Notes: a model not told the origin generated them from the letters alone. A stretch of 64,000 bases of DNA from Candidatus Thalassarchaeaceae archaeon (GCA_029250605.1 JAQXEZ010000006.1:11535-75534); one strand, 5' to 3'; positions 628 to 36,236 are shown, counted from the first letter of the stretch. Translations and numbers: made by a program.

Positions 628-1305
628 ATGGTAGGGGTCGAAAAGGAGCCTGGCTTCATTGACTTAGACTTCGTCGAGGCCGACAGCGAAACCATGCTTT
701 CCAAGGCGCGCTCATTCTACGAGCAGATGGATCGTCGGAGGACCACTCGGCACTTCTCCAATAGGGAGGTCCCCCGTGAATTGATTGAGCTCGCAATTAG
801 GACAGCAAGCACAGCCCCCTCCGGAGCCCATCTCCAGCCTTGGACATTCGTGGCAATCTCGAACAAGGAGTTGAAGGCGGTAATCCGAGAGGAGGCGGAG
901 AAGGAAGAGGCTAGGTTCTACGAGGAAAGGATACCCGAGGAGTGGGAGGAAGTTCTAGCACCACTTGGTACTGATCAGTTGAAGGAGCACATCACTGAAG
1001 CTCCATGGGTCATTGTTCTGTTCAGGCACTCGAAGAGGGAAAGAGGGGATGGTTTCGCACCTACATACTACTCACAGGAGTCTTGTGGCATTGCAGCCGG
1101 CCTGTTCATCTCCGCAGTCCACAACATGGGTCTGGCGACGCTACCTCACACGCCCTCTCCGATGGGTTTCCTGCGGGAAATACTTCAGAGGCCTAAGCAC
1201 GAGCACGCAATGCTGCTACTCCCTGTCGGTTACCCTGCAGAGGGGGCCAAAGTTCCCGACTTGTCGAGAAAGGCGTTGGATGAGGTCTCGGATTTCCGAG
1301 ATTGA
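628..1305 (+). CDS. Nitroreductase-superfamily flavoprotein, iodotyrosine deiodinase (IYD)-like
   Basis: Start taken at ATG 628 (the ORF opens at GTG 616, overlapping the previous stop). Motifs RRTTRHFS, IRTASTAPSGAHLQPWTFV, LLLPVGYPAEGAKVPDLSRK run nearly collinear with my recollection of the animal/bacterial IYD family. Confidence 0.8.
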   Translation: MVGVEKEPGFIDLDFVEADSETMLSKARSFYEQMDRRRTTRHFSNREVPRELIELAIRTASTAPSGAHLQPWTFVAISNKELKAVIREEAEKEEARFYEERIPEEWEEVLAPLGTDQLKEHITEAPWVIVLFRHSKRERGDGFAPTYYSQESCGIAAGLFISAVHNMGLATLPHTPSPMGFLREILQRPKHEHAMLLLPVGYPAEGAKVPDLSRKALDEVSDFRD

Positions 1306-1334
1306 TTAAGTATCGCTGCGACTCCCGATTACCC

Positions 1335-2309
1335 ATGAAGAGTACCAGAAAGAACGCCTTGGCGATTCTACTAGCCCTACTGATGACTGCCTCTGCCCTA
1401 TCGGGCTGCTCAGGAACCGATGACGATGTGGATGACGAGCCTAGGGATCTCGAGGACTGGGACGTTTTCCTGGTGCAGGGCTCGTCCAATCTCCCTTCAT
1501 GCGATTCAACAACAGAAGGAAGGCTCTACTATGTGTCTTCTGAGTCGGGATTCCAAACCTGCTCGAATGGCTCGTGGCAGTCGATTGATCTAACTGGCCC
1601 GAATGGTGACCAGGGTCCAGCGGGCCCAGCGGGAGCAGACGGAGAAGCGGGTCCAGCGGGCCCAGCGGGGGAAGCCGGGACATCGTTCTCGATTATCGGA
1701 ACCGTGGAGGAAACTTCTGATCTCGGAGAGATATACATCGGCGACTCAGGGGACGCTTTCATGGTAAAATCAACCGTACACATCCACGTTTGGAGTGGCT
1801 CTGAGTGGATTGATCTCGGGAACATCTCAGGCCCTGAGGGCCCTCCCGGGCCACAGGGGAACCCCGGAGCAAATGGTGCTGCGGGCTCGGCGGGAGCTGA
1901 TGGTGAGTCGGGGCCGACGGGACCAGAGGGTCCTGCTGGAGAGGATGGGGCCGCTGGTTCGATGCCTGTGATGATGGAGATGGAAGTCATAGTCTCAGGC
2001 ATGAAGTTCTACATAGATTCCATCCTGCAAGCAGATGTAACTCTCTACAGGGGCTTCACCTACACCTTCGATCAGTCGGCTTCTAGTAACTCCCCCCATC
2101 CTCTTAGAATATCCACCACCAGCGATGGAACGAACGGTGGAGGAATCCAGTACACTGATGGGGTGACATACACGGGGAGCCAGGGTTCGAACGGCCTGCT
2201 GACATTCACGGTTCCTTTGGATGCTCCAGACACACTGTACTACTATTGTCAGAATCATGGAAACATGGGAGGGGAGATTTCTATCCAATCCCTAGGAAGC
2301 GTCTCGTGA
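1335..2309 (+). CDS. Lipoprotein with two collagen-like Gly-X-Y runs, a tail-fibre-like spacer and a C-terminal cupredoxin-like domain
   Basis: Start moved to ATG 1335 (MKSTRKNALAILLALLMTASALSGC, a signal peptide plus lipobox-like LSGC). Gly-X-Y runs lie at nt 1596-1679 (9 triplets) and 1830-1958 (14 triplets). The C-terminus has PHPLRI ... YYYCQNHGNMGG (Cys-x2-His-x2-Met at nt 2247-2267), a type-1 copper ligand-loop pattern like amicyanin. Confidence 0.7.
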   Translation: MKSTRKNALAILLALLMTASALSGCSGTDDDVDDEPRDLEDWDVFLVQGSSNLPSCDSTTEGRLYYVSSESGFQTCSNGSWQSIDLTGPNGDQGPAGPAGADGEAGPAGPAGEAGTSFSIIGTVEETSDLGEIYIGDSGDAFMVKSTVHIHVWSGSEWIDLGNISGPEGPPGPQGNPGANGAAGSAGADGESGPTGPEGPAGEDGAAGSMPVMMEMEVIVSGMKFYIDSILQADVTLYRGFTYTFDQSASSNSPHPLRISTTSDGTNGGGIQYTDGVTYTGSQGSNGLLTFTVPLDAPDTLYYYCQNHGNMGGEISIQSLGSVS

Positions 2310-3269
2310 GTTCTGGCTCTGTCGTGAGGCATCTTCCGGGGGGACAGCAAACACCAATGCCACTCCTGACCCAATGATGAGCAGTCCGCCCATCCAGTCA
2401 GCAGGATCGAGAGTCTCCCCGAAAATTGCAAATCCGTAGAAAGTTGCTACTATTACAGTGAGGTAGGAGAAGGCGCTGACCCATGCAGCATTCGCCTTGT
2501 GGTATGCCATTGTGATTCCGATCTGACCTCCTCCTGCTCCGATCCCTACTCCAACCAGAGAAGCGATTGTTGCGGAATCTAGAGATGGGACATCGGGAGC
2601 GGCTTGGATGATGCTTCCACAGACAGAGAAGGCTGCGAACCAGAACACTACAGTAGCAGGCGAGTCAGTCTTCCTGAGTTCTCTGACGTACATGTATGCC
2701 AGAGCAGCGAAGAATCCGGATCCCAACGCCAAGAGCGCGTCTGGCTCGATGCTACCCAGTTCAGGTGAGATAATCAGGACGATTCCAACAAATGCAGTAA
2801 TGACGAGCATGGCAACGCCGGATGAGACGCGTTCTGCCAGAATCCTTCCCGAAAGCAGCGCTACGAAAAGCGGGCCTGTGTACTGGAGAGTGACGGCTTG
2901 GCCTATGGGGATCCTGCTGAGGGCGGTGAAGTAGAGAATCATCGCCAGAAGTCCTACGGAGCATCTGAGTAGCATTGTCTTCCTGTCATTGACCCTCAAG
3001 CTGATTCCCCGGGATGCCGCGAAAGCGGCCACTGCGAACGCAATCACCGCAGACCTGACCATGATGATCATCCACACATCAGCATGGTCGCTCGTCCATT
3101 TGACCAACGCATTCATTGTCCCAAAGCAGACGCTGCCGAAAATCATCCAGAGGACAGCGGCCTTCGGGGAGTCCGGCATCTCTTCCTCGGTTACGAATGA
3201 GGATAGGTCGGGACCTTCAGTACTGGAGTAGATTTCCCCCAAACCTCTTCCCAGCCCGCTTTTTGCCAT
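2292..3269 (-). CDS. EamA/DMT-family 10-TM transporter with a ParB-like N-terminal GLGRGL peptide
   Basis: Start taken at ATG 3269, 1 nt after the parA stop (3271-3273). The ORF-track start at 3347 would overlap parA by 77 nt. The N-terminus is MAKSGLGRGLGEIYSS, followed by an acidic linker. The rest is a typical duplicated EamA hydrophobic pattern (LQYTGPLFVALLSGRILAERVS..., GLLIIGSGVALVF). Confidence 0.75.
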   Translation of the reverse strand: MAKSGLGRGLGEIYSSTEGPDLSSFVTEEEMPDSPKAAVLWMIFGSVCFGTMNALVKWTSDHADVWMIIMVRSAVIAFAVAAFAASRGISLRVNDRKTMLLRCSVGLLAMILYFTALSRIPIGQAVTLQYTGPLFVALLSGRILAERVSSGVAMLVITAFVGIVLIISPELGSIEPDALLALGSGFFAALAYMYVRELRKTDSPATVVFWFAAFSVCGSIIQAAPDVPSLDSATIASLVGVGIGAGGGQIGITMAYHKANAAWVSAFSYLTVIVATFYGFAIFGETLDPADWMGGLLIIGSGVALVFAVPPEDASRQSQNSRDAS

Positions 3270-3270
3270 C

Positions 3271-4233
3271 TTAAGACAGACCCCAACGATGTTGCAATTC
3301 CGTGGTAATTGCCTGGTAGTCCTTGCCTCCGGCACTGGAGGGGTCATGGAGGTGAATTGGAACTCCGTGGCTTGGTGCCTCTGCCAATCTCACGTTCCTC
3401 CTAATAGCGGGCCTGACGACTAAGTCAGGGAAGTTTTCCAGGACCTCGCCTGCAACTTGTTTGTTCAGCAGTGTCTGCGAGTGCATGGTCAGTAGGACTC
3501 CATCCACCCCCAATCTATCGTTCAGCAGACTCCTGACTTCCCGAATTGTTCCAGCCAATAGGGCCAATCCCTCCAATGCGAAGTATTCGGTCTGAACCGG
3601 AACTAGTACCCCATCGGAGGCCACCAATGCGTTGATTGTCACTAGGCCCAGTGAAGGGGGGGTGTCAATCAGTACGAGGTCGTAGTGAGCAAGCAAGGGT
3701 TCGAGTGCCTCCTTCATCCTCTTCTCCCTCCCGAGTTGCCTCATCATCTCCTGTTCCAAACCAATCAAACTCTTGTCTCCGACTATGATGTGCAGATTAT
3801 CCACTGCTGTAGCGTGCCTGGAGTCGACTGCAGTCTCCGGGGTTAGAATCAGGTCTCGTGTGGTAGTCCTGACCCTACTCTTATCCACGCCTAGCCCGGT
3901 TGCGCAGTTTCCCTGGGAATCAGAGTCAATCACAAGGACCCGGAAACCCCTCAGTGCAAGTTGGGCTGCGATGTTGATGACTGTGGTAGTCTTACCAACT
4001 CCACCCTTTTGGTTGATTACGGTGACTACCCTTGCCCTACCTTCTGGAGTGGGCAATGAAAGCGGGAGCTCCATCGGGCTTCGTGACCTATTTGCCCTGA
4101 TCTCCTCCGCCGAATCGAGAGGTGGTGCAAGGTTTTCGTCTTCCTCCTCCAAGAATTCTACGTCGATTATCAATGGAGCATCACCTACTTCTGGCAGTTC
4201 TTCGTCGCCATCTGAGGAGTTCATCCGAGGCAA
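3271..4233 (-). CDS. parA: ParA/Soj-family partition ATPase with an acidic N-terminal extension of about 68 aa
   Basis: Deviant Walker A VINQKGGVGKTTT, Walker B-like LVLIDTPPSLG and a DSDSQGN motif. The acidic N-terminal region (DGDEELPEVGD...EEEDENL) is not typical of ParA. Confidence 0.9.
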   Translation of the reverse strand: MPRMNSSDGDEELPEVGDAPLIIDVEFLEEEDENLAPPLDSAEEIRANRSRSPMELPLSLPTPEGRARVVTVINQKGGVGKTTTVINIAAQLALRGFRVLVIDSDSQGNCATGLGVDKSRVRTTTRDLILTPETAVDSRHATAVDNLHIIVGDKSLIGLEQEMMRQLGREKRMKEALEPLLAHYDLVLIDTPPSLGLVTINALVASDGVLVPVQTEYFALEGLALLAGTIREVRSLLNDRLGVDGVLLTMHSQTLLNKQVAGEVLENFPDLVVRPAIRRNVRLAEAPSHGVPIHLHDPSSAGGKDYQAITTELQHRWGLS

Positions 4234-4293
4234 CGGCGCTAGGAGCCGTGTTGAACATGACGCTTGCTTGGGGGATGGAAATGCGTGTTTGCT

Positions 4294-6384
4294 TTAGCCC
4301 GTGGAACGGTCGATGAGATACCATAGAACCATCTCACCGGTCTCGGCATCCATTGCCATGTCTAGTGACTTGTCTCTCCCGTCTTCTTCCCAATTCCTTG
4401 TTGTGGCCATTGTCACCTTGCCATCTCCCAGATCTCCAGGAAGGAAGCTAAGGATCTCATTGTCCTCTGTGACAGAAAGCCTGTAGCCAACCTCTGCTTC
4501 TGGGTTCCAGGAGCTCCCGGATTGAATGAATGGGGATAGGTCTGGGTATCGTTCGGGGCTTAGGATTCGTTGTTCCAACAGAGACAACGTCTGTGTGCTA
4601 GGGATTGAGTCGCGGTTCCATGAAACATCGCCCCTATTGTTTGAGCCAGAGGAGATGACATCGCAACCCTCTGGAGACTGACGTAGAACCAACCATCCTG
4701 AGGCATCGTCTTCATCCACCCATGACATATTCCACTCGCCTTCGCCGGTGGGTTTGGACCACGATGCCTTCCAGATGTATCCCCCAGAATCTAAGGCCTC
4801 GGTTGCTTGGTTGTTTGGATGACTTGATTTTAGACAGGTGACGGCCTCTTCGAGATCGAACTGCCTGATGTCGGACTCGTCCCACATGGAATCAACCCAG
4901 TTTCTCTTGGTTGAGGTCCCGGGCCTATCTTCTCCATCTGTGGGGCTTGTTGTGTAGTCACGGTTCCAGTCTATTGGTTTGCTTCCAGGTGAAGAATCAG
5001 TCCGAGAGAATGTTGTGGTGATGGAGAGCGTGCCTTGGGGTAGAATCTCGTCGGACAGCGAACTAACTAGGAAATCACAGTCCTTTGTCTGCAAGTCCTT
5101 GTCTAGGAGAATATCAGACATCTGCTTTACCGGCCAAGAGCTACCGCTCTGAACGTAGATCTGGATCGTTGCATGCCCGAAACATCTTCCGATTTCCTCG
5201 TGTTCGAGGAAAACCGGGTAGACGAGCCCGTGGATATCGTCTCTGAACTCCTTCTTGACCTCCCACTTCCAGTCTGAGTTCCAATTGATGTCGGGGTCCG
5301 ATGACCTCGCTCCCTCCTTGATAACAACGTCACCAAAGAAGCCGTGAAGCTCTATCGGGGTCATGGGGAACGATAGGATTGGGAGGAGTTCCGCCAACCC
5401 TCCGAGACCCCCTGCATCATAGGTTACGGCTCTGAGGTTGGTGGTCACGGAGTCAACGTCGCTGAAAGAGACTGATGTGTGGGTCCTCTTGACCTCTGTC
5501 TTCTCTATCTCCACCCAACTGGTTGAGTCTACCGACAGATCGTTACCCGACATTACCCATCTGATGTTTCCACAATCGGTTTCAGCATCGTCTCTCCAGG
5601 TCCTTCCCTCGAAGTCAACGTCAAGATCCATGCTAATCGTCTTCTCAACTGATAGGAAACCGGACCTCCCCAAGCTATCGGTGGTTTCTACGGCACCCGA
5701 TTCGGGGCCATCTGCTACCAGAACAGTCCCAGTTCCATCCATTTCCATTGAGAATTCTCCACAGGACGGATCTAGGATCCCACCAGCCGAGTCTCTAACT
5801 ATGCTGAGCATCTCCTCACCATTGATGCTGACGCTAGAATCGATTACCTGGAAGTCCATGTTCTCTCCGAATCTCAGTTTCGAGACTGTGAAACCGGAGC
5901 TCCTCTGGAGGAAAACTGTAGCAGCGGCGCCGACGAGGATTGTAACAAGTAGGACAGCAACGACCGCCTTCCATCGATCACCCAGAGAAGATAGGGTAGG
6001 CATTGAGATGACCAGTGATGGCTGATCGTCCTCACCAAGGATAACCGGTTCTAGGGTGGCGGGGGTTTTCTCTGGATCGGGAGAAACTACCTCGGCCTCT
6101 ACGATTTCGGCCTCTACGACCTCTCCTATCCTGGATAGGACCTCGTCCACCTTCTCTCGGGTATCGGGAGGATCGTCATCAACGACAAGAGCATCTTCTC
6201 CCCAAGATTCCTCTTCTGGAGCCTCGTTTGGGTCATCTAGGATTCCTGCATCCTCAAGAATCCTATCGACTAGTACGGACTTCTTTCCCGATACTAGGAG
6301 TCCTCTATCCTTGCAAATCTCCCTTAGCTTCGCTACTGTGTTTGAGGTAAGCGACTCTCGGTCAATTGAAACATCTTCGGTCAT
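4294..6384 (-). CDS. Single-pass membrane protein: N-terminal SAP DNA-binding motif, acidic linker, TM helix, extracytoplasmic domain of about 535 aa with unknown fold
   Basis: Residues 12-44 (LTSNTVAKLREICKDRGLLVSGKKSVLVDRILE, nt 6253-6351) match the SAP helix-extended loop-helix consensus. A TM helix KAVVAVLLVTILVGAAATVFL lies around residues 139-159. Nothing is recognisable in the remainder. Confidence 0.7.
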   Translation of the reverse strand: MTEDVSIDRESLTSNTVAKLREICKDRGLLVSGKKSVLVDRILEDAGILDDPNEAPEEESWGEDALVVDDDPPDTREKVDEVLSRIGEVVEAEIVEAEVVSPDPEKTPATLEPVILGEDDQPSLVISMPTLSSLGDRWKAVVAVLLVTILVGAAATVFLQRSSGFTVSKLRFGENMDFQVIDSSVSINGEEMLSIVRDSAGGILDPSCGEFSMEMDGTGTVLVADGPESGAVETTDSLGRSGFLSVEKTISMDLDVDFEGRTWRDDAETDCGNIRWVMSGNDLSVDSTSWVEIEKTEVKRTHTSVSFSDVDSVTTNLRAVTYDAGGLGGLAELLPILSFPMTPIELHGFFGDVVIKEGARSSDPDINWNSDWKWEVKKEFRDDIHGLVYPVFLEHEEIGRCFGHATIQIYVQSGSSWPVKQMSDILLDKDLQTKDCDFLVSSLSDEILPQGTLSITTTFSRTDSSPGSKPIDWNRDYTTSPTDGEDRPGTSTKRNWVDSMWDESDIRQFDLEEAVTCLKSSHPNNQATEALDSGGYIWKASWSKPTGEGEWNMSWVDEDDASGWLVLRQSPEGCDVISSGSNNRGDVSWNRDSIPSTQTLSLLEQRILSPERYPDLSPFIQSGSSWNPEAEVGYRLSVTEDNEILSFLPGDLGDGKVTMATTRNWEEDGRDKSLDMAMDAETGEMVLWYLIDRSTG

Positions 6385-6491
6385 GCTCTGTGACTCAGTC
6401 CGGCCCTGAGGCTTTCAATCTCTCCGACTTCGTGGGCCTCCGGGGGCATACTCCTCGTGTTGCCACGAATTCCCGAGGGAAAGGGTTGAAG

Positions 6492-7466
6492 ATGACCTCT
6501 TGGACGGCGCAGACCATGGAACCAAGGGTCGTACTCCTCTCGAGAGGCCCCGAGCTGTATAGCACTAGGAGGCTTGCAACCGAGGCCGAGAAGGGTGGAT
6601 GGCTGGTCGACATAATCGACCCCCTTGCACTAACCATAGTGGTCGATGATAATGGAGGGAGGGTCTTCCACAGGGGTTGGCCTGTGGAATGTGAGGCGGT
6701 ACTCCCGAGGATTGGTTACTCCATCACTAGGAGAGGTGTTTCTATAGTGAGGCAATTTGAGCAATCTGGAGTCATCGTTCTAAACTCGAGCCAAGGCATC
6801 CTCAGGAGTAGGGACAAACTTGTTGCATGCCAAATGATGGCCGAGGCTCGAGTACCCGTTCCAATCACTGCTCAAGTTGGAGCTTGGGAAGACACCGACC
6901 GCGCAATTAGAAGGGTCGGAGGCGCTCCTTGCGTGGTCAAGTCAACGGAGGGCACCCATGGATCAGGGGTCTTCTTGGTTAACTCGGCACAGCAGGCAAG
7001 GCAACTAGTCTTCCAGATGCTTGAGAGGGGGATGAGGCCATTGGTTCAGGAATACATCAAGGAATCCCATGGCAGCGACATCCGCGCACTTGTCGTAGGA
7101 GGGGAAGTGGTGGCTTCGATGCGTAGGAAGGCCCATGGCAGCGAGTTCCGTTCCAACTTCCATCTTGGCGGTTCTGTTAGCAATGTAGAATTGTCTTCGG
7201 AGCAGAGAGAGATTGCGATTCGCTCTACAGAAACACTGGGACTTGAGTTGGCTGGGGTCGATATGCTAGAGTCCGATCGAGGACCCCTGGTCCTGGAGGT
7301 CAACTCCAGCCCCGGGCTGGAAGGAATAGAGGGCGCCACGAAGATAAACGTAGCAGAGAAGGTTGCGACACGAATGAACAAACTGTATGAGGACATCTTA
7401 GTGGATGAGAGCGAGGTCGAGGAGGCCCCCAATTCCAACGTAAGCCACCCTGAGCGATCTTTCTGA
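6492..7466 (+). CDS. rimK: RimK-type ATP-grasp ligase (alpha-L-glutamate ligase family)
   Basis: Start moved to ATG 6492 (MTSWTAQTMEPRVVLLSRGPELYSTRRL). ATP-grasp motifs: VVKSTEGTHGSGVFLV, QEYIKESHGSDIRALVVGG, GVDMLESDRGPLVLEVNSSPGLEGIE. It is divergent from the SAP-protein gene. Confidence 0.8.
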   Translation: MTSWTAQTMEPRVVLLSRGPELYSTRRLATEAEKGGWLVDIIDPLALTIVVDDNGGRVFHRGWPVECEAVLPRIGYSITRRGVSIVRQFEQSGVIVLNSSQGILRSRDKLVACQMMAEARVPVPITAQVGAWEDTDRAIRRVGGAPCVVKSTEGTHGSGVFLVNSAQQARQLVFQMLERGMRPLVQEYIKESHGSDIRALVVGGEVVASMRRKAHGSEFRSNFHLGGSVSNVELSSEQREIAIRSTETLGLELAGVDMLESDRGPLVLEVNSSPGLEGIEGATKINVAEKVATRMNKLYEDILVDESEVEEAPNSNVSHPERSF

Positions 7467-7609: not shown

Positions 7610-8737
7610 TTGACTGGAGAAGGGGGCCGGAAAGAGATTGACAACCCGCTTAGTGGGCGTTTTGGCAGGAGGTTCGATTCGGATGAGATTGGCCTTGCAG
7701 ACTCGCTTCCATCTAGGTTGAATAGGCTAGCAGACCTGAAATGGCATGATTGCTGGATGCAGCAATTGCGGTCTGAGAAGAAGAGTTCCCACACTATCAG
7801 GGCATACGATGTTGCAGTGAGGTCATTCTCCACCACGTCTCTTCCCGGTGAAGATTCCATGAGTTGGGAGGAAGCGTCAGCCACCCCTGTCAGGTCTTTC
7901 CATCAGTTCGTGGACCCCAACAATGGAAGGATGGATGCGTGGATGAATACTCTGGGAGAGTTGAAACCCTCAACGATCAATGCAAAAATTGCGGCTCTAA
8001 CCCATCTTCTGAAGTGGTTAGGGCACACCGTTCCAGATTGGATACAACGCCCCACGAGGAGCCGTTCACTTCCGAAGACCCTCGGTAGGAGGGAGTTGGC
8101 TAGGCTTAGAAAAGCCGTAAGTGAGTCTGAAGACCCCCTGGCCATGCCGGTCTCCACTCTGATGCTGGACACCGGTCTGAGGGTCTCAGAGCTTTGTGCA
8201 CTCGATATCGACGACATAGACAAGGAGGACCTGTCTGCATTAGTTATTGGAGGAAAGGGGGAGAAGGACCGAACCGTCCTGTTCACGCAATCCTCTGTCG
8301 AGGTGTTAGAATCTTGGGAGCCAATTAGGGAAAGAAGGCTCAGCGATGTCGATGACAACGGACTCAGGGCAGTGTTCGTATCCAGCAGAGGGCGGAGGAT
8401 CAATCCCCGTTCGATTCAGAAAATGATGGACAGGCTTGCCGATGCAGCTGATATTCCAAAGAGTCGTTTGAGCCCCCATACACTGAGGCACACGTTCGCT
8501 ACAGGACTATTGGAGAGGGGAGCAGACCTGGTTACCATCCAGAGGCTCTTGGGGCATTCGAGCATAGCTACCACCAGAGTTTACCTTGAGATAGGGGACC
8601 AAACACTCAGGGAGATATACCATAGGGCTCAGAGGAACCCCCCTGCTTCCGGAGAGCATCAAGTGGAAGAGGAGGAAAAGGAACCCTCTGCCAAGCCGAG
8701 CGAGAAGATAGTTGAGAGGCCAGTCACCAAGCGCTAG
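7610..8737 (+). CDS. Tyrosine recombinase, XerC/D (archaeal XerA)-like
   Basis: The catalytic set is present: LRVSE (Arg), GKGEKDR (Lys), HTLRHTF (His-x-x-Arg), GHSSIATT (His), RVYLE (Tyr). The start (TTG 7610) is uncertain. It has an unusual Glu/Lys-rich C-terminal tail. Confidence 0.85.
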   Translation: MTGEGGRKEIDNPLSGRFGRRFDSDEIGLADSLPSRLNRLADLKWHDCWMQQLRSEKKSSHTIRAYDVAVRSFSTTSLPGEDSMSWEEASATPVRSFHQFVDPNNGRMDAWMNTLGELKPSTINAKIAALTHLLKWLGHTVPDWIQRPTRSRSLPKTLGRRELARLRKAVSESEDPLAMPVSTLMLDTGLRVSELCALDIDDIDKEDLSALVIGGKGEKDRTVLFTQSSVEVLESWEPIRERRLSDVDDNGLRAVFVSSRGRRINPRSIQKMMDRLADAADIPKSRLSPHTLRHTFATGLLERGADLVTIQRLLGHSSIATTRVYLEIGDQTLREIYHRAQRNPPASGEHQVEEEEKEPSAKPSEKIVERPVTKR

Positions 8738-10125: not shown

Positions 10126-10884
10126 ATGCGAGAGGGGGAGGGAGAGGTTCCCGAGCCAGAAGGGGTGAATCCGCAGCGTTCAGTCCTGTATGCACAGGTG
10201 GCTAGTTCGGATCCAAGGATGGCCTTCGACGAAGACGGGGCCATGCAACAGTTCGGCACCAGAGGATCGTTCGGCAAGGTCTACTTGGGTGATGTCGCCA
10301 GGGCATCATTGCGATCTCTTGGGACTCACGATCCACCGGTATTCACCCGGATGCCGAGAGTTGACGAGCAGAACTGGGAACTATCCTGTGAAACGGACGA
10401 GGTCAAGATGACGATTTCCAGCAGTCACTACTGGGGCTTCGGTCTTTTCGCGAGGTGCTTCCTAAACAGGATTGTCATGGAGGGTTCGCTTCCGACTAGG
10501 GCCAGATGCGCAATGGACATCGTTTCCTCCCTGGGCAGAAACCCTTGGGAGCCTATACGGGTAAAGGCGTTCGAGAGAGCCACATCAGGCTCGATGACGG
10601 CGCATACCTCCAGCTGGGACAGCCTGATTTCACTAGCTAGGGAGAGCATGAGCGATGACATCACCAGGCTCCAGGACTCTGTTCATCGAATGAGGGGGGT
10701 GGATGAAGCTGGAGACATGCATCTCGATTCCGCTGATGAGGCCCTGGAACGTGCAAGGGAGGCTCTGTCTGACAAAAACGCCCCCGCGGTCGACAGAGCG
10801 TTGAGCAGAGCTTCCAGCGCAATAGTGAGAGCCGATCCTAATTCTGACTTGGGGAGCATGGAGAGGGAGCTTCTGGGGAACTAG
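10126..10884 (+). CDS. Hypothetical protein (about 252 aa)
   Basis: The ORF-track ORF is 9832-10884. I place the start at ATG 10126 (or 10219) because the first 98 codons look non-coding. The C-terminal third is helical and charged (DSADEALERAREALSDKNAPAVDRALSRASSAI). No family recognised. Confidence 0.45.
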   Translation: MREGEGEVPEPEGVNPQRSVLYAQVASSDPRMAFDEDGAMQQFGTRGSFGKVYLGDVARASLRSLGTHDPPVFTRMPRVDEQNWELSCETDEVKMTISSSHYWGFGLFARCFLNRIVMEGSLPTRARCAMDIVSSLGRNPWEPIRVKAFERATSGSMTAHTSSWDSLISLARESMSDDITRLQDSVHRMRGVDEAGDMHLDSADEALERAREALSDKNAPAVDRALSRASSAIVRADPNSDLGSMERELLGN

Positions 10885-11087
10885 AGTCCCAGAGTATCCC
10901 ACATCCACTTCCAGACGTTGTTTTCGGGGCTTGGCTCGTTGGCCAGATAAACGACTACGCTGAAGACTACGCAGACGAAGTAGACAGTGCCCTTGGAGAT
11001 CTGAATTGCATCCTCCGACTCCTCGTCGAAGTACCTAATCAGACCTGCAGCCTGCTGAATGCCGCTGCCCTTCTTCTCCTTAGCCAT
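10881..11087 (-). CDS. secG: Preprotein translocase subunit Sec61beta (archaeal SecG)
   Basis: MAKEKKGSGIQQAAGLIRYFDEE followed by a single C-terminal TM (VYFVCVVFSVVVYL). This is the archaeal Sec61beta signature AGL[IM]RY.DE. Confidence 0.8.
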   Translation of the reverse strand: MAKEKKGSGIQQAAGLIRYFDEESEDAIQISKGTVYFVCVVFSVVVYLANEPSPENNVWKWMWDTLGL

Positions 11088-14514: not shown

Positions 14515-15249
14515 ATGTCAGTGATGACTCCCATCTTCGAAGGTCTGTGGGATCACTACATTTTGTGGTCGGTAATCGTGGGCGCGATTGCTTTCGGGTG
14601 GCTCTATCACCACTCGTTCTGGTTTACCTCAAAGGATGGGGAGAAGTTACCAAACGTGGATGGAATCGAGGTTGGGGTTTTCCCCAAGCACAACGACGAC
14701 ATGCGTCTAGAAGTCGCTTGGACAATCCTGCCATTCTTGCTGATTGTGTGGCTGACCTATTACTCGTGGGAGCCTTTGGATGCCATGTGGACATCGGCGG
14801 ATGGCGGAATACACGGCTACGAATGCGATTACGATGACCCGGAATACACCGGTTCGAATAACGAAATGGACTCGAACGGCATAATCTCGTCTGATTGCTA
14901 CCATGTGATTGAGATCACGGGCCAGCAGTGGTTCTGGAGCTTTGACTGCCTTGAGTTGGAAACCAGCCTCTGTGACACCGGTACCGAGAGTATGGAGGTT
15001 TACGGAAGCGTCCCGGTCCTAAGCCTGAAGAAGGGCGAGACGTATTTCGCGGTCATGGATTCGATTGATGTCACACACGCTCCATGGTTCCAGCACCTGG
15101 GCACCAAGGAGGACACCGTGCCCGGGCAGCAGACCACCCTCTGGCTCCCAATTTCTGATTCAATGACCGAGGAGTCAATGGTTCTCTGCGCGGAGTACTG
15201 CGGGGACGCACATTCGATAATGGCCGCGAAGCTGGTGACGCACAACTGA
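14515..15249 (+). CDS. coxB: Haem-copper oxidase subunit II (CuA cupredoxin)
   Basis: Two N-terminal TM helices. The CuA site is CAEYCGDAHSIM (nt 15187-15222) with an upstream DVTHA His. No fused cytochrome c domain. Confidence 0.9.
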   Translation: MSVMTPIFEGLWDHYILWSVIVGAIAFGWLYHHSFWFTSKDGEKLPNVDGIEVGVFPKHNDDMRLEVAWTILPFLLIVWLTYYSWEPLDAMWTSADGGIHGYECDYDDPEYTGSNNEMDSNGIISSDCYHVIEITGQQWFWSFDCLELETSLCDTGTESMEVYGSVPVLSLKKGETYFAVMDSIDVTHAPWFQHLGTKEDTVPGQQTTLWLPISDSMTEESMVLCAEYCGDAHSIMAAKLVTHN

Positions 15250-15259
15250 GGTTAGAACT

Positions 15260-17596
15260 ATGTCGAAGGCAAGATCAAAGGTGGCAATCATGGCTCTTGT
15301 GGCAATAGCTGCCATGCTTGCATTTCCATCGGCCCAGTCACTACCCGGAGGAATCTCTGGTGTACAGCAGTCAGGCTGCAACTGCCATGGAGCTGTCCCC
15401 TCAGATTCAGTGATGGCATCGATAGATGGCCTTCCGGAGAGCTACAACTACTCTGAAGAGTACGAGATAACCGTCTCCTTCCAAGGAGGCCCCAGCCAGG
15501 AAGGCAACGTGAACCAAGGCGGCTTCCACCTATGGGCGAGCGAAGGCACTCTTTCCGTGAACGACGCGACCGCACAGGTGTACAACCAGAACGAGGCGGG
15601 GCACACGGATGCGGGCAACGACCAGGTGTCGTGGACAGTGATGTGGACGGCACCTGCTACGGATAAAAACGTGGATTTCGTACTCCATGTCAACTCGGTC
15701 AACGGAAACGAAGACGGAGCAGGAGGAGGCACTTCGGGGGACATGTGGAGCAAAGCCGCAGTTTCCCTAGGAGGTCCGATAGAGGTCTTGGAGGCAGCCG
15801 ATCCGTTCGTCGTTCTCGGTGTTCTGATAATCGTCTCCGCGTCACTTCTTGCCATAACCCTCGCATACGTCTTCTACAGAAAGGACCCCGATGCTTTCGA
15901 CTGGGACAACTTCGCACCATGGCTCGCTGATTGGATGACTAGCACCGATCACAAGAGGATAGGCACCCTATACTTCGTCGCTGGACTGTTCTTCCTCGGG
16001 GTGGGCGGCATCATGGCGATGATCATCAGAATCCAACTCGCAGTTCCCGGTAACGACTTCCTAACCCAGGAGCAGTACAACCAGTTCTTCACCCTCCATG
16101 GGACGACCATGATCTTCCTGGCTGCTATGCCTATGATCAACGGCTTCGCAAACTGGATGATTCCACTTCAGCTGGGAGCAGCTGACTTGGCACTACCCAG
16201 GATCAACGCGATGTCATTTTGGTTACAGCCATTCGCAGCCCTTCTGATATTCACAGGTGTCTTCTCGGGCCACGGCGCAGACACGGGATGGACGGGATAC
16301 GCTCCCTACGTGGTAAGCGAGGGAGCTCACCATGGTACGACCATGTGGGCAGCAGGGCAGATCATGCTCGTGGCGTCTTCGACTCTAACTGGGATCAACT
16401 TCCTTACTACCATGGCCGTGATGAGGGCCCCTGGGATGGGATGGATGCAGATGCCTCTCTTCAGCTGGTCTATTCTGGTAGCCAACGTAATGCTATTCCT
16501 CTCAATTCCTGCTTTCGGGGTGGGGCTGATTCAGGTCTACCTGGATAGGGTAGTGGGAACCGCCTTCTACGACATTGCGGCCGGGGGTGACCCATTGCTG
16601 TGGAGTCACCTGTTCTGGTACTTCGGTCACCCAGAGGTCTACGTGGTCGTGGTTCCTTCGTTCGGGATTATCTCAGAGGTTATTGCCACCAGTTCCAGGA
16701 GGTCCGTCTTCGGATACAGATCGATGGTTTACGCGATGGCGGGCATTGGAATAGTTGCCTTCATCGTATACGGCCATCACATGTTCACCAGCGGGATGAG
16801 CCCTACACTCAGATTCGTGACGATGCTAACGACGATGCTGGTTGCCGTACCAACCGGAATCAAGGTGTTCAACTGGCTGATGACAATGCATGGTGGATCA
16901 CTGGTATACAGGACGCATACGCTGTGGGCCCTAGGATTCCTAGTAACCTTCACCCTTGGAGGGATCTCGGGCATGTTCTTCCCCTCGATAGCGATGGACA
17001 CCCACCTGCACGAATCCTACTTCGTAGTGGCTCACTTCCACTACGTCCTAGTTGGGGGGACCGTATTCGGCTTCTTCTCCGGGATCTACTACTGGTGGCC
17101 CAAGGCTACAGGGAAGATGCTGAGCGAGAAGCTCGGTGTGCTCCACTTCCTGACGGCTTTCGTCTCCTACAACGCCCTCTTCTGGCCAATGCACAGGCTG
17201 GGAGTCTGGGGGATGACACGCAGGCACCACACCTACTTCGTGACGACGGAGGAGGCCCTCGGCTCGTTGCCGATGGAAGCGGCGGGCTGGAACATGTTCA
17301 TCTCCGTCGCCGGCTTCCTCTTCTTCTTCTCGAACTTCATACTGGTGTTCAACATGATAGCCTCCTCAATCAGGGGGGAGGATGCTCCTGACGACCCATG
17401 GGGCGGATGGTCCTTCGAGTGGATGACCAGCTCACCACCACCGGCTCACACTCTCTACAAGCTAGATGACGGAAGTTGGGGGATACCCACGCTCAGGGAT
17501 GCCAATGAGCACATAGCGAACGAGCCTGGTTGGCTATCCACGTGGTTCGGGAAGCTATTGGTATCAGATGACGACACAGAGGAGGCGGCACATTGA
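15260..17596 (+). CDS. coxA: Haem-copper oxidase subunit I fused to an N-terminal exported CxxCH domain
   Basis: The canonical subunit I starts near nt 15930 (STDHKRIGTLYF, WFFGHPEVY-like FWYFGHPEVYVVV, HHMF, VAHFHYV). It is preceded by about 220 residues: a signal/anchor, a soluble domain with C-N-C-H (nt 15377-15388), and an extra TM helix. Confidence 0.9.
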   Translation: MSKARSKVAIMALVAIAAMLAFPSAQSLPGGISGVQQSGCNCHGAVPSDSVMASIDGLPESYNYSEEYEITVSFQGGPSQEGNVNQGGFHLWASEGTLSVNDATAQVYNQNEAGHTDAGNDQVSWTVMWTAPATDKNVDFVLHVNSVNGNEDGAGGGTSGDMWSKAAVSLGGPIEVLEAADPFVVLGVLIIVSASLLAITLAYVFYRKDPDAFDWDNFAPWLADWMTSTDHKRIGTLYFVAGLFFLGVGGIMAMIIRIQLAVPGNDFLTQEQYNQFFTLHGTTMIFLAAMPMINGFANWMIPLQLGAADLALPRINAMSFWLQPFAALLIFTGVFSGHGADTGWTGYAPYVVSEGAHHGTTMWAAGQIMLVASSTLTGINFLTTMAVMRAPGMGWMQMPLFSWSILVANVMLFLSIPAFGVGLIQVYLDRVVGTAFYDIAAGGDPLLWSHLFWYFGHPEVYVVVVPSFGIISEVIATSSRRSVFGYRSMVYAMAGIGIVAFIVYGHHMFTSGMSPTLRFVTMLTTMLVAVPTGIKVFNWLMTMHGGSLVYRTHTLWALGFLVTFTLGGISGMFFPSIAMDTHLHESYFVVAHFHYVLVGGTVFGFFSGIYYWWPKATGKMLSEKLGVLHFLTAFVSYNALFWPMHRLGVWGMTRRHHTYFVTTEEALGSLPMEAAGWNMFISVAGFLFFFSNFILVFNMIASSIRGEDAPDDPWGGWSFEWMTSSPPPAHTLYKLDDGSWGIPTLRDANEHIANEPGWLSTWFGKLLVSDDDTEEAAH

Positions 17597-18711
17597 GCCA
17601 AGACGACCACCATCATCCCAGTGCATGGGGACCGCATGACTGGAACCATGGAGCGCCCCACAACTCATGGGCGCCATTCATCCTGAGCATGGGGGTGGCC
17701 ATCTTCCTATTCGCCCTCGCCGGAGCCTTCGAGTGGGGCGAGTTCCAAGGATGGGGCAACGTCCCACTGATATTCGTCGGTCTCGGTGTGGTAGGATTCA
17801 GCCTGCTTGTCTGGTGGAGGCAGGACATGAGCTTCGGAATGAACGGAGAGGTCTTCGAGCCAAAATCGACTGGGACGCCGTTCCAGAACATAGACATCAG
17901 GAAGGTGGCGATGTGGGTTTTCCTTATGTCCGAGATGATGGTCTTCACATCCTTGTTCAGCACCTACATGAGGTACAGGTTCGGGATCCCCAACTGCCAG
18001 ACCGTATTCGAATCCGGTGAGTGGGTGGAGGGGACTGCAGTAACCTGCTTCGAACCAGCCAGCCACCTGATTGCCTCCAGTTGGTTCCACATCGCTCCCG
18101 GGGCCATCAACACATTCGCCCTGATCATCTCCTCCTTCACCATAGTTCAGGCACTTCGCTACGCGAAGATGAAGGACATCGAAGAGGATGTGAGGAGGAG
18201 GAAGATCACTCGCTACCTGGGAACTACCTGGTTCCTCGCCATACTGTTCCTGACCATGAAGATGATCGAGTGGTTCCTGGGCTTCCCTCTACCCGACTTC
18301 TTGCACGAGTTCAACCACGGGGACTCCTCCATCAAGTCCCTGTATGCAGAGGGCTACCTGATCAACGCGGACCACTACCAGCACCACGCATACGACACGC
18401 ACTACCTGGAGTCGCATGGGCATGGCCTTGACCATGATTCGGAGCTCTACGCCATGATGGAGGCCGGTACTCATCCAGGTGGCCACATGATGGCTGACAT
18501 CCAAGTCAGCGCCACCACCTTCTACGTCACCACGGGCACCCACGGCGCCCACGTCTTCGGTGGCATAATCGGGCTTAGCTACATGACCCTGAAGGCCGCC
18601 AAGGGAGGTTACACCCCTGACAACGCGGTCTCCATAGAGTACTTCGGCCTCTACTGGCACTTCGTGGACCTGGTGTGGGTCCTGGTCTTCCCGTTCTTCT
18701 ATCTATACTGA
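17593..18711 (+). CDS. coxC: Haem-copper oxidase subunit III with a His-rich insertion
   Basis: C-terminal signature THGAHVFGGIIGLSYM ... YWHFVDLVWVLVFPFFYLY. At 372 aa it is longer than the lengths I recall for subunit III. Confidence 0.85.
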   Translation: MSQDDHHHPSAWGPHDWNHGAPHNSWAPFILSMGVAIFLFALAGAFEWGEFQGWGNVPLIFVGLGVVGFSLLVWWRQDMSFGMNGEVFEPKSTGTPFQNIDIRKVAMWVFLMSEMMVFTSLFSTYMRYRFGIPNCQTVFESGEWVEGTAVTCFEPASHLIASSWFHIAPGAINTFALIISSFTIVQALRYAKMKDIEEDVRRRKITRYLGTTWFLAILFLTMKMIEWFLGFPLPDFLHEFNHGDSSIKSLYAEGYLINADHYQHHAYDTHYLESHGHGLDHDSELYAMMEAGTHPGGHMMADIQVSATTFYVTTGTHGAHVFGGIIGLSYMTLKAAKGGYTPDNAVSIEYFGLYWHFVDLVWVLVFPFFYLY

Positions 18712-18722
18712 GGTGAAATGAA

Positions 18723-19085
18723 ATGGCGCATTACAAGATTATGGGGCAAGACCCCTACTGGATGAACTTCTACGGACTGATGATACTGACCCTGATAGAG
18801 GTCCTCGCCGTCGGTGCTGACCTCGGCCCGGTGGCAGACTCACTCGGTACCGAGGAGAATGTGGTTACCCTCTGGATCCTTACGATAATCGCGATTCCGA
18901 AGTTCATCATGATCGCTGCTATTTTCATGCACCTCTATGGTGACGAGGACTCGGGGATACTGACCATGACCGCCCTATTCCCTGCCTTCTTCATCCTCAT
19001 CATGGTTCTGTTTGTCGGACTTACCCACCCAGACGCCCCCTCTAGCCTGCCGGACTGGTGCAGGCCAGGCAACTACGGACTCTAG
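18723..19085 (+). CDS. Small membrane subunit, prokaryotic cytochrome oxidase subunit IV-like
   Basis: Three hydrophobic helices with LTLIEVLAV and AAIFMHLYGDE motifs. It is the last gene of the cox operon. Confidence 0.55.
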   Translation: MAHYKIMGQDPYWMNFYGLMILTLIEVLAVGADLGPVADSLGTEENVVTLWILTIIAIPKFIMIAAIFMHLYGDEDSGILTMTALFPAFFILIMVLFVGLTHPDAPSSLPDWCRPGNYGL

Positions 19086-21234: not shown

Positions 21235-22287
21235 ATGCGGAGGGCAATCGAATTGGCCGAGAGGGGCCGACACCGAGTGATGCCCAACCCACTAGTCGGG
21301 TGCGTCCTAGTCAAGGACGGGGAGGTGGTCGCAGAGGGATGGCACGACCACATCGGCGGGCTCCATGCAGAGCAGATGGCGATCGCGGACGCTGAAGCCA
21401 AGGGAGTCACAACACGGGGAACCACCGCCTACGTGACGCTAGAGCCATGCAATCACTTCGGCAGGACGCCTCCTTGCACCGAGTCTCTATTGTGGGCAGG
21501 TGTGGAGAAGGTGGTGATTGGGGCAATGGACCCCAATCCGACAGTCAGGGGGGATGGTGCCATTATGCTAATGGAGAATGGCGTTGAAGTAACCACAGGA
21601 CTCCTCGGAGAATCCTGCGAAGAGAAGATGGGTGAATTCATACATTGGTGCAGGGAGAAAAGACCCCTTGTGACTCTGAAGGCATCTACTGACTCCAGAG
21701 GCAGGGTGGATGGGGGCCCCTCCGAACCTGCGAGAAGATTCAGCTCTACCGAGTCTCTTGAGATGTCTCACGCTTTGAGAGCCGACTCCATGGCAATTCT
21801 GGTAGGGGTGGGCACTGTGATCAGGGACAACCCATGCTTGACCGTTAGGGGGCCGGAAATCAATCCTAGGGACCACCCGCTAAGGGTTGTTCTGGACCCA
21901 AGAAACAGAATACCAGAAGGCTGTAGATTGCTATCGGACGGGGAAGCCCAGACCCTGCTGGTGCAGTCTTCTGAATTCGATAACTCACTGGATGCCCCCA
22001 ATGTCAGCCGTGCAGTCATACCAGGTCCAGACATTCCCATACCAAACCTCCTCCATATGCTGGGGGACATGGGAATACAGTCCCTCCTGGTCGAGGGAGG
22101 GGTCGAGACCTGGAAGAGGTTTCTTTCTTCAGAGCTAGTGGATAAGGCGAGAATATGCGTCTCTCCCCTGGAGCTTCCATCAGGCGGACAGGAATTCGAC
22201 ACAGATTTGACCGAGTTTGGGATGGAGAAAACCTCGGGGAGCAACGTCTCGGGCGATACAATTCAGTGGTGGAAGAAGGGGAGATAA
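21235..22287 (+). CDS. ribD: Bifunctional riboflavin biosynthesis protein RibD (deaminase/reductase)
   Basis: MRRAIELAERG..NPLVGCVLV, HAEQMAI, TLEPCNHFGRTPPC (CDA zinc site), and a C-terminal RibD reductase domain (LLVEGGVETWKRF). Confidence 0.85.
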   Translation: MRRAIELAERGRHRVMPNPLVGCVLVKDGEVVAEGWHDHIGGLHAEQMAIADAEAKGVTTRGTTAYVTLEPCNHFGRTPPCTESLLWAGVEKVVIGAMDPNPTVRGDGAIMLMENGVEVTTGLLGESCEEKMGEFIHWCREKRPLVTLKASTDSRGRVDGGPSEPARRFSSTESLEMSHALRADSMAILVGVGTVIRDNPCLTVRGPEINPRDHPLRVVLDPRNRIPEGCRLLSDGEAQTLLVQSSEFDNSLDAPNVSRAVIPGPDIPIPNLLHMLGDMGIQSLLVEGGVETWKRFLSSELVDKARICVSPLELPSGGQEFDTDLTEFGMEKTSGSNVSGDTIQWWKKGR

Positions 22288-22379
22288 TCCCCCTCTATTC
22301 TGTGAATTGTACAGGGTCTACGATTAAATATGACGGGTTAGCGGCGTCCATTTACATGTATAGCGAAAGCACTACACGA

Positions 22380-35096: not shown

Positions 35097-36236
35097 TTGT
35101 CTCAAATACCCCAAAAAGGGCGTCGAATCGGGGATGGGCACGTGAGTGAGAGCAAGCCGGCAGACTCGAGCGAGTCAGAGGGTTTGGACGAACTAGATGC
35201 TCTGAGAGCAGAGCATGCACTATCCTCCACAGCAATGGGGGCTGCAGCAAGAGCCCGAGAAAGACTGGATGAAGAGTCAACACTCCGCTCCGGGATCAGG
35301 AGAGAGAGGAGGATGAGAATTTCTGAGATGACGGACAGAGTCTCGGGGATGCAAGGCGCAATGAGGAAGGCTAACGAGATTCTATTCGAAGAGCAATTAC
35401 AGCAGATTGAGGCTGACCTCAGGGACGAGTTGGAGGATGAACTAGAGAGACTAGAGAAGGAGGCATTGGAGAGGGAGGAGAGACTCCTCAGGGAAGAAAT
35501 GCTGCATCGCCTTCGCAGAGAGGAGAACAGACTTCGCGATCAACTAGATCTAGAGAGGGATAGAAGGACTGAGGCCCATTCATCACGGATCAGAGACAGG
35601 CTCAGAGGGGAAATGGAAGTCGAGTTCACTCGACGGAAAGCGTTCCTCGAGGAGAGGCTAGAGCTGGAGGCCAACCAGGGAATGGAGAGAATGGAACGCA
35701 GGGTTGAGATGGATCTCCGAGAAGCAATGGAGTCTGAGGTCCATCGAAAGGCCGAGGCATTTAGGCTAGAGCAGGAAATTAAGATGCGAGACAGCATTGC
35801 CAAGAAGAGGCGGAAGCATGAGGCAAAGATGGAGAAGCAGCTTGAGAGCGAAAGAGAGTCCCTCGAGAAGGAATTGAAATCCGACATCAATGTCAGGACC
35901 AAGGCGCTGCAGGAAGAATCCGAAAGAGCATCCATCGGAGATCTTGACCGGAGGTTTAGGGCTGAGAAGGAGAGTATGGAGGCAGCACTAGGCCTCAGAA
36001 GACAAGAACTGGCTCTAGAGAGCGAGGTCGAGATGGAGCAGAGAGTTGCCGATTTCGTCAAGGAGAGGGAGTCGGAGATGATGTCAAACCTGGAGAAGCA
36101 GATGTCGAAGAGAGGAGACATGTCAAAGAAGGACATCAAGGAGATGCTCAAGACTCTGGAATCGGAAATCCGACTAAAGATGGAGACAGCCCTTCTTGAC
36201 GCAAGGCATAGGGTGATGGACCAATCCGGCTCATAG
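35097..36236 (+). CDS. Glu/Arg/Lys-rich coiled-coil protein
   Basis: More than 300 residues of uninterrupted charged heptad-like sequence (ELERLEKEALEREERLLREEMLHRLRREENRLRDQLDLERDRR...). The start is uncertain (TTG 35097, GTG 35142). Confidence 0.55.
   Translation: MSQIPQKGRRIGDGHVSESKPADSSESEGLDELDALRAEHALSSTAMGAAARARERLDEESTLRSGIRRERRMRISEMTDRVSGMQGAMRKANEILFEEQLQQIEADLRDELEDELERLEKEALEREERLLREEMLHRLRREENRLRDQLDLERDRRTEAHSSRIRDRLRGEMEVEFTRRKAFLEERLELEANQGMERMERRVEMDLREAMESEVHRKAEAFRLEQEIKMRDSIAKKRRKHEAKMEKQLESERESLEKELKSDINVRTKALQEESERASIGDLDRRFRAEKESMEAALGLRRQELALESEVEMEQRVADFVKERESEMMSNLEKQMSKRGDMSKKDIKEMLKTLESEIRLKMETALLDARHRVMDQSGS

Follow-up and report, generated by a model that had tools for sequence, protein, structure and literature searches.

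ParA/MinD ATPases are general positioning engines of prokaryotes, and each system is defined by the partner that bears its activating peptide. The partners of chromosomal, Soj-type ParA proteins carry a characteristic motif, which Schnabel et al. (2025, PMC12462528) locate at residues 11-19 of Myxococcus xanthus ParB and which is the part of chromosomal ParB that binds ParA. Each of the residues L11, L15, L18 and I19 is needed for ParA binding, R13, often a lysine in other species, touches a neighbouring surface of ParA, the N-terminal tail that holds the motif is disordered and becomes a helix once bound, and a 20-mer ParB peptide suffices to stimulate the DNA-dependent ATPase activity of ParA (PMC12462528). 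In the SegAB system of Sulfolobales and some Euryarchaeota, the N-terminal region of SegB contacts the ATPase (bioRxiv 10.1101/2025.04.15.649018). Here we describe an archaeal locus in which a motif of the chromosomal ParB type stands at the N-terminus of a membrane transporter, encoded directly behind a Soj-type ParA. The locus lies in a 64-kb stretch of 64,000 nucleotides from a Candidatus Thalassarchaeaceae archaeon (GCA_029250605.1, JAQXEZ010000006.1:11535-75534; hereafter the window), in which three open reading frames (ORFs) run in one direction on the minus strand and are all present at the coordinates 4294-6384 (a SAP-domain membrane protein), 3271-4233 (ParA) and 2292-3269 (an EamA permease). 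Together these three genes make up a cluster that is specific to Poseidoniales and centres on a chromosomal ParA (Soj) of bacterial type.

The gene directly downstream of parA occupies the position of parB, its start codon lying 1 nt past the ParA stop codon, and encodes a 325-aa permease of the EamA/DMT (drug/metabolite transporter) family (2292-3269, minus strand). This assignment is supported by orthologs, by a Pfam EamA match of 5.3e-27 comprising two repeats and by an AlphaFold2 (AF2) model with 10 transmembrane (TM) helices (mean predicted local distance difference test score, pLDDT, 79.8; core ~90); the NCBIfam model 2A78 also matches the protein, below its cutoff. Residues 1-32 are disordered in the model (pLDDT <50) apart from a short helix at 10-16, and this tail is predicted to be cytoplasmic. 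The protein begins MAKSGLGRGLGEIYSS, and the opening of its tail, MAKSGLGRGLGEIY, fits the ParA-binding motif of chromosomal ParB, with L6-G-R8-G-L10-G-E-I13-Y14 having the spacing and chemistry of L11-G-R13-G-L15-x-x-L18-I19 in M. xanthus ParB, and with the motif at a distance of 4-5 residues from the N-terminus, which is likewise the case in ParB. A six-frame translation of the window contains GLGRGL once, at residues 5-10 of the permease. An earlier, preliminary description of this window had proposed a ParB-type GLGRGL peptide on a 10-TM DMT transporter, and both the fit to the published motif and the structural model bear this out. We delimit a putative ParA-binding peptide of ParB type, MAKSGLGRGLGEIYS, at 3225-3269 (minus strand), on the basis of the motif match, the codon evidence and the disorder predicted by AF2.

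The longest ORF of the permease spans 2292-3347 on the minus strand, comprising 26 more codons upstream and overlapping the 3' end of parA. Among 47 distinct sequences from relatives, 21 have a stop codon directly ahead of the initiator methionine (MAKSG start), which fixes the start at 3269, as had been proposed, and shows that the extension to 3347 is not translated. Automatic gene callers could mis-annotate the N-terminus of this protein and thereby hide the peptide. A candidate ParA-EamA fusion ORF in one related locus (L055) was rejected, as a stop codon lies between the two genes.

Next, we investigated selection on the peptide using the 47 distinct motif-bearing DNA sequences. The residues L, G, R and L at motif positions 2, 3, 4 and 6 (L-G-R-x-L) are invariant in 47/47 sequences, across which they are encoded by six Leu, four Gly and five Arg codons. 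At motif position 9 only I, V, M and L occur, and the flanking residues vary. The invariance of these residues despite free codon variation indicates purifying selection on the peptide at the protein level. Furthermore, among the 150 closest EamA cluster representatives at 50% identity, the motif is found only in orthologs from Marine Group II.

Upon examining the ParA ORF (3271-4233), we observed Pfam matches to AAA_31 (2.7e-54) and CbiA (7.8e-21), as well as to MipZ and ParA. The top matches in the PDB were M. xanthus ParA (8RAY, 2.7e-58), Thermus thermophilus Soj (1WCV, 3.5e-51) and Helicobacter pylori Soj (5e-41), with ~50% identity to 8RAY and 1WCV over the core (residues 66-320). Archaeal MinD (~1e-15; MinD 5e-16) and archaeal SegA (7DUT, 7e-13) were weaker matches, the NCBIfam model minD_arch scored 61.8 bits against a cutoff of 201.75, and the NCBIfam MinD models fell far below cutoff. 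Because the closest structures are bacterial and the matches to MinD and SegA are weak, we assign this ParA to the bacterial chromosomal Soj type and not to SegA or MinD. The C-terminus (...ELQHRWGLS) is without a MinD-type amphipathic membrane-targeting helix. The deviant Walker A motif NQKGGVGKTTT, with its signature lysine, is invariant in 25 aligned orthologs, and the catalytic Asp motif VIDSDSQGN and the Walker B motif LVLIDTPPSLG can both be aligned with 8RAY and 1WCV and are kept in relatives. Invariant in the same 25-ortholog alignment is the DNA-binding region RNVRLAEAPSHG, which presumably contains the equivalent of Soj R189.

The alignment with relatives also indicates that translation probably starts at the ATG at 4224 (MNSSDG..., 317 aa; 3271-4224, minus strand) and not at the TTG at 4233, so that the start assumed earlier is best revised. 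The Soj-type assignment of this 317-aa protein is drawn from Pfam AAA_31, the PDB matches and the ortholog alignment. An acidic N-terminal extension of ~60 aa, which had also been described before, is present in the orthologs and carries two invariant motifs, PLIIDVEFxExE (in which D21 and E26 are invariant) and LELPxSxPTPxGRARVV. Both motifs are kept in all lineages, including those that lack the permease peptide, and the extension (residues ~10-65) is a candidate interaction motif for a further partner. With respect to the pocket that receives the ParB peptide in M. xanthus ParA, V116, L150, L152, L155, L187 and L192 correspond to Q161, L195, L197, I200, E232 and L237 of this ParA, and four of the six positions (L195, L197, I200 and L237) are hydrophobic and conserved as such.

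We also searched for the remaining components of a conventional partition system. A Pfam scan covering 51 of the 53 ORFs in the 64-kb window found no ParBc/ParB domain, and tblastn of the window with Bacillus subtilis Spo0J (an approximate query) returned noise only, in keeping with the earlier statement that no conventional ParB is present there. The parS consensus had one match at 3 mismatches in 64 kb, compared to 1.06 expected by chance, and no repeat cluster beyond chance was found around the locus, the repeats of a neighbouring collagen gene aside. The gene that follows parA is the EamA permease; no small DNA-binding gene follows parA.

The third gene (4294-6384, minus strand) encodes a 696-aa SAP/HeH-domain (HeH, helix-extension-helix) protein, predicted from Pfam, hydropathy, AF2 and orthologs to be a type-II membrane protein with its N-terminus inside and its C-terminus outside. 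The SAP motif, at residues 12-44, reaches 39.5 bits against a gathering cutoff of 23.9 (Pfam PF02037, E = 4e-10), and its pattern LxxxxVxxLRxxCxxxGLxxSGKKxxLxxR is kept in the conservation profile of 66 orthologs. The hydropathy scan identified one hydrophobic segment, at residues 137-162, and the AF2 model, built from 36 homologs, places a TM helix at 138-159, three short SAP helices ahead of a disordered linker (50-139), and a beta-rich C-terminal domain (aa ~170-696, pLDDT 70-90) with conserved cysteines. The claim of a SAP motif at the N-terminus of a single-pass membrane protein is thus sustained, and DNA binding by the predicted SAP motif would follow from its family. Searches with this protein were otherwise unproductive: phmmer against PDB sequences gave no match, and Foldseek of the model against the PDB gave nothing convincing, the top TM-scores being 0.24-0.32 for open beta-barrels of the RseB/MucB/LmcA kind. 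The family that combines SAP and TM segments is small and confined to Poseidoniales (172 matches, identity down to ~38%). The acidic linker (aa ~50-136) is variable overall and keeps a DDAIDRLLSR-like segment and a repeated EAEVxEAEI (residues ~75-135), and S-x-V-I-x-x-P-S is conserved just ahead of the TM helix.

We then stratified the occurrence of the trio by taxon. The matches of the EamA, SAP and neighbouring proteins derive from marine Thermoplasmatota, that is, Candidatus Poseidoniales (Marine Group II), mostly Thalassarchaeaceae, and the permease is 97% identical to that of the metagenome-assembled genome (MAG) MED-G35 by tblastn. Scanning the GTDB species representatives with the EamA alignment yielded 80 loci; the labels of almost all name Marine Group II/Poseidoniales or broader archaeal MAGs, and two are labelled as bacterial. 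The order Xer(-), RimK(-), SAP(+), ParA(+), EamA(+) is kept in every adequately long locus of the 80, with identities across loci of 34-94% for SAP, 72-99% for ParA and 66-97% for EamA. The trio is also kept in the divergent P0243 and P0394 groups (EamA 54-57% identical) and in the P0245 group (ParA 63-67%, SAP 33-37% identical). Across ~86 Poseidoniales species or lineages, every adequately long locus retains it.

These findings point to a conserved, previously undescribed arrangement that is predicted to wire ParA to the cell envelope. As to its likely origin, a bacterial parAB operon would have been acquired; the ParB body (the CTPase and helix-turn-helix, HTH, domains) would then have been lost, and the first ~15 codons of parB, those for the motif that binds ParA and activates its ATPase, would have become the N-terminus of the next gene, the EamA/DMT permease. 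As to its operation, ParA-ATP dimers would bind nucleoid DNA non-specifically, and at the membrane the permease tail would engage these dimers and switch them off. Nucleoid-bound ParA would in this way be transiently tethered to the envelope, with ATP hydrolysis stimulated and ParA released, and the resulting membrane-proximal depletion zone or gradient of ParA could hold the nucleoid and envelope proteins in mutual position. The SAP-domain membrane protein would act as a passive, sequence-independent tether of DNA to the membrane. From the families involved we infer binding, ATPase activation, DNA binding by the SAP protein, topology and the cellular outcome, and also the role of the trio in DNA positioning. 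The whole picture, in which the permease tail couples ParA cycling to the envelope and the SAP protein adds a DNA tether, is held tentatively, as one about as apt to fail as to hold and slightly more so. The bare contact between the peptide and ParA we regard with more confidence, and from the sequence evidence an interaction between the two is plausible.

Several observations weigh against this proposal, among them the patchy distribution of the peptide. The motif is absent in ~30 of the 80 species representatives, where the permease has a short N-terminus (e.g. MSEPVDTPHVAVLWM... or MTEQTSIGQGHIAPNDSPR...), and the deeper P0245-type lineage also lacks it. On a neighbour-joining tree of ParA, species without the peptide fall into several separate clades that are nested among carriers, and Fitch parsimony requires at least five changes of peptide state. 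As the motif and the PDLSSF segment that follows it are common to all carriers, repeated loss is far likelier than repeated gain. ParA, SAP and EamA are all intact in the peptide-less clades, the identity of the ParA core is 0.87 without the peptide and 0.85 with it, all catalytic motifs are kept, and no GLGRGL-type motif was found elsewhere in the ~17-kb loci of peptide-less species. Since the peptide can be gone while ParA is retained and constrained, it is dispensable, and it is neither an obligatory activator nor the sole partner of ParA. It follows that ParA must have a peptide-independent role or partner, possibly through its own PLIIDVEF motif, and we view the peptide itself as most likely an accessory regulator or tether.

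The residues of the peptide and its expected pocket add reservations as well as support. At the fourth hydrophobic motif position (Y14), relatives often have A, S or T, and two of the six pocket positions of ParA are not hydrophobic (Q161 and E232). Upon comparing ParA between lineages with and without the peptide, Leu stands at position 197 in all 51 that bear it and Ile in 23 of the 36 that lack it, the parsimony count being at least seven changes. Of the 255 ParA core columns, 19 are invariant with the peptide and variable without it, and such columns make up 6/16 of the pocket or chemical-shift-perturbed positions compared to 13/239 of the others (Fisher p = 3.8e-4, kinship ignored); in the reverse class, 1/21 columns falls at pocket or chemical-shift positions. 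The statistic is phylogenetically uncorrected, and the p-value rises to 0.15 once a single deep peptide-less lineage is dropped. This covariation gives suggestive support for a physical interaction between the peptide and the pocket.

The role given to the SAP protein is affected by the synteny of the region, which spans the whole ~20-kb neighbourhood (RsmB, Xer, RimK, the trio, nitroreductase, PUA, S8e, SRP19 and PolB). Because the neighbourhood is syntenic as a whole, adjacency is weak evidence of a functional link, above all for SAP, and the adjacency of the SAP gene to parA could be passive. The only evidence that links the SAP protein to ParA is synteny. Two further points bear on whether ParA has another partner: the window encodes another ParA paralog of Soj type, overlooked in the preliminary description (36242-37144, minus strand, 300 aa, AAA_31 7e-45, 35% identical to the first), and it is possible that a ParB or other partner is encoded elsewhere in the genome, of which the 64-kb window was searched.

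Among the alternative explanations, we consider it unlikely that the system positions cargo. The permease, perhaps together with the SAP protein, would then be spread or spaced by nucleoid ParA, in the manner of McdA/McdB carboxysomes or PpfA/TlpT chemoreceptor clusters, and the aim would be inheritance or placement of the transporter rather than the positioning of DNA. The logic of an N-terminal peptide on the partner is common to ParA/MinD cargo systems (PMC12462528; PMC12139897), the peptide is here covalently part of the transporter, and its repeated loss fits a non-essential positioning function. However, there is no obvious need for the active positioning of a single DMT permease, the EamA protein is without a clustering or scaffold domain by Pfam and AF2, a monomeric or dimeric membrane protein would be expected to make a poor diffusion-ratchet cargo, and the conserved SAP protein would be left unexplained.

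A similarly low probability is assigned to the explanation that ParA mainly serves another partner, either a ParB or centromere binder encoded elsewhere or the SAP protein by way of the N-terminal motif of ParA, with the EamA peptide only modulating or competing in a minor way, for instance by adjusting ParA turnover as a sink at the membrane. In favour of this, ParA is equally constrained in peptide-less clades and PLIIDVEFxExE is invariant in them as in all other lineages; moreover, the DNA analysed amounts to 64 kb of the genome, and, as the second paralog shows, this genome holds diversified members of the family. On the other hand, the window has no ParB domain, parA is followed by no small DNA-binding gene, the ~17-kb peptide-less loci hold no substitute motif of the GLGRGL type, and the peptide is under strong selection wherever it is present.

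The envelope-coupling proposal can also be stated in a bolder form, namely that Poseidoniales segregate or organise their chromosome without a centromere-binding ParB, with a membrane-embedded activator peptide, borne by a transporter, cycling nucleoid-bound ParA and a SAP/HeH membrane protein tethering DNA to the envelope. We regard this form as improbable, and more so than either of the alternatives above. If true, these archaea would possess a partition machine anchored in the envelope, with a DNA tether whose architecture parallels that of the eukaryotic HeH/LEM proteins of the inner nuclear membrane. Finally, it is very doubtful that the peptide is merely the relic of a decayed parB joined to EamA by deletion, with no present ParA interaction and with the trio adjacent by inherited synteny, because, although the peptide is missing from several separate clades with no visible effect on ParA, SAP or EamA and synteny extends over the whole region, none of the four key residues varies among 47 distinct sequences in which synonymous change is saturated, a neutral leftover would not have survived divergence of this order (EamA down to 51-57%, SAP down to 33% identity), and position L197 of ParA covaries with the peptide.

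Regarding the surroundings of the trio, a RimK-type ATP-grasp ligase (6366-7466, plus strand) is transcribed divergently from the SAP gene; its true start is probably ~50 codons downstream of the listed TTG, as its relatives have 316-318 aa. It is followed by a Xer-like tyrosine recombinase (7610-8737, plus strand) with a SAM-like N-domain and an integrase domain, which always adjoins the trio in Poseidoniales. On the other side, a protein with collagen triple-helix repeats (1302-2309, plus strand; Pfam Collagen 4e-11; GPAGP repeats with a 9-nt period) is encoded convergently with the EamA gene. Of the 80 species-representative contigs, at least 12 stop within ~1.5 kb downstream of EamA (loci L020, L026, L028, L036, L041, L043-L045, L053, L067, L084 and L085), which suggests a variable or hard-to-assemble region there. 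A scan for sigma-70 promoters and intrinsic terminators, with bacterial models that do not cover archaeal promoters, returned 0 promoters and terminators at chance level.

Further along the window, the second ParA paralog has the Walker A sequence NHKGGCSRTTT, in which the P-loop Lys is replaced by Arg, and an insertion of ~45 aa, and it may be a pseudo-ATPase or belong to a separate positioning system. Its neighbours lie at 35097-36236 (plus strand) and 37183-38169 (minus strand); a MoxR AAA ATPase gene precedes the paralog, which is convergent with an ORF of 379 aa that encodes a highly charged coiled coil rich in E, R and K and has no Pfam match. A 1743-aa ORF (22155-27386, plus strand) is without a Pfam match, and the 26-28 kb interval has the top GC content of the window (0.62) and a strong AT skew (0.30). 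Additionally, we observe a Sec61-beta-like protein (10881-11087, minus strand; below the Pfam cutoff), a haem-copper oxidase operon of four genes, COX2/COX1/COX3/COX4 (14515-19085, plus strand), a bacterial-type UvrB (47743-50013, minus strand) and an Hjc resolvase (59072-59659, minus strand). The last four constitute a housekeeping setting, which fits the chromosome of an aerobic heterotrophic Marine Group II archaeon and not a mobile element.

Few uncultured archaea of the surface ocean are as abundant as those of Marine Group II, and to our knowledge nothing is known of their chromosome or cell organisation. Literature searches on this arrangement, on ParA/ParB of Marine Group II and on archaeal SAP-domain membrane proteins brought up no description, which accords with the earlier remark that the arrangement is not recognised from described systems. 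We found no earlier case in which a ParA of chromosomal type is linked directly to a polytopic membrane protein; this would be the first. A near-canonical ParB peptide transplanted onto an integral membrane transporter and selected over the depth of a whole archaeal order would constitute a natural experiment, presenting the peptide as a portable module. The prediction is open to an in vitro test with one recombinant protein and a 20-residue peptide (the synthetic EamA N-terminus, MAKSGLGRGLGEIYSSTEGP); for comparative work, the peptide-less clades serve as a natural, built-in control.

Overall, the locus resembles several described systems and matches none of them in full. With the bacterial chromosomal ParABS systems of M. 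xanthus, T. thermophilus and H. pylori it shares the type of ParA and a motif LGRGLxx(I/V/L/M) near the N-terminus, in a disordered tail, encoded by the gene directly after parA. Unlike in those systems, there is neither a ParB CTPase/HTH body nor parS in the window, the motif is carried by a DMT permease with 10 TM helices, the locus belongs to an archaeon, an acidic N-extension of ~60 aa precedes the ParA core, and the motif is dispensable in many lineages. The similarity to SegAB consists of an archaeal ParA-family ATPase with a non-ParB partner that contacts, or here is predicted to contact, the ATPase by its N-terminal region, whereas SegA itself is distant (7DUT at 7e-13, compared to 2.7e-58 for bacterial ParA) and SegB is a small soluble, site-specific DNA-binding protein, in contrast to the 325-aa permease that follows parA here.

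For the SAP protein, the comparisons concern architecture and presumed function. Bacterial Noc is a ParB paralog with a membrane-binding N-terminal helix, and as a DNA-membrane tether the SAP protein is functionally reminiscent of it, a resemblance only, given that its DNA binding is predicted. SAP, LEM and HeH are related folds. The HeH/LEM proteins of the inner nuclear membrane (Heh1/Src1, Heh2 and MAN1), of which Src1 is an HeH representative (PMC4810098), have in common with the SAP protein an N-terminal helix-extension-helix module and a long disordered linker ahead of the TM segment, and differ from it in that no sequence is shared beyond the SAP motif and that the archaeal protein combines one TM helix with a large beta-rich domain that is predicted to be extracellular. 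Lastly, McdA/McdB, PpfA/TlpT, PomXYZ and MinDE likewise combine a surface-bound ATPase with a short activating N-terminal peptide on a dedicated partner from an adjacent gene (PMC12462528). MinD differs from this ParA in its C-terminal membrane-targeting helix, and all four systems differ from the Poseidoniales locus in that their peptides are system-specific, whereas here the motif is nearly that of canonical chromosomal ParB and its bearer is an integral polytopic transporter.

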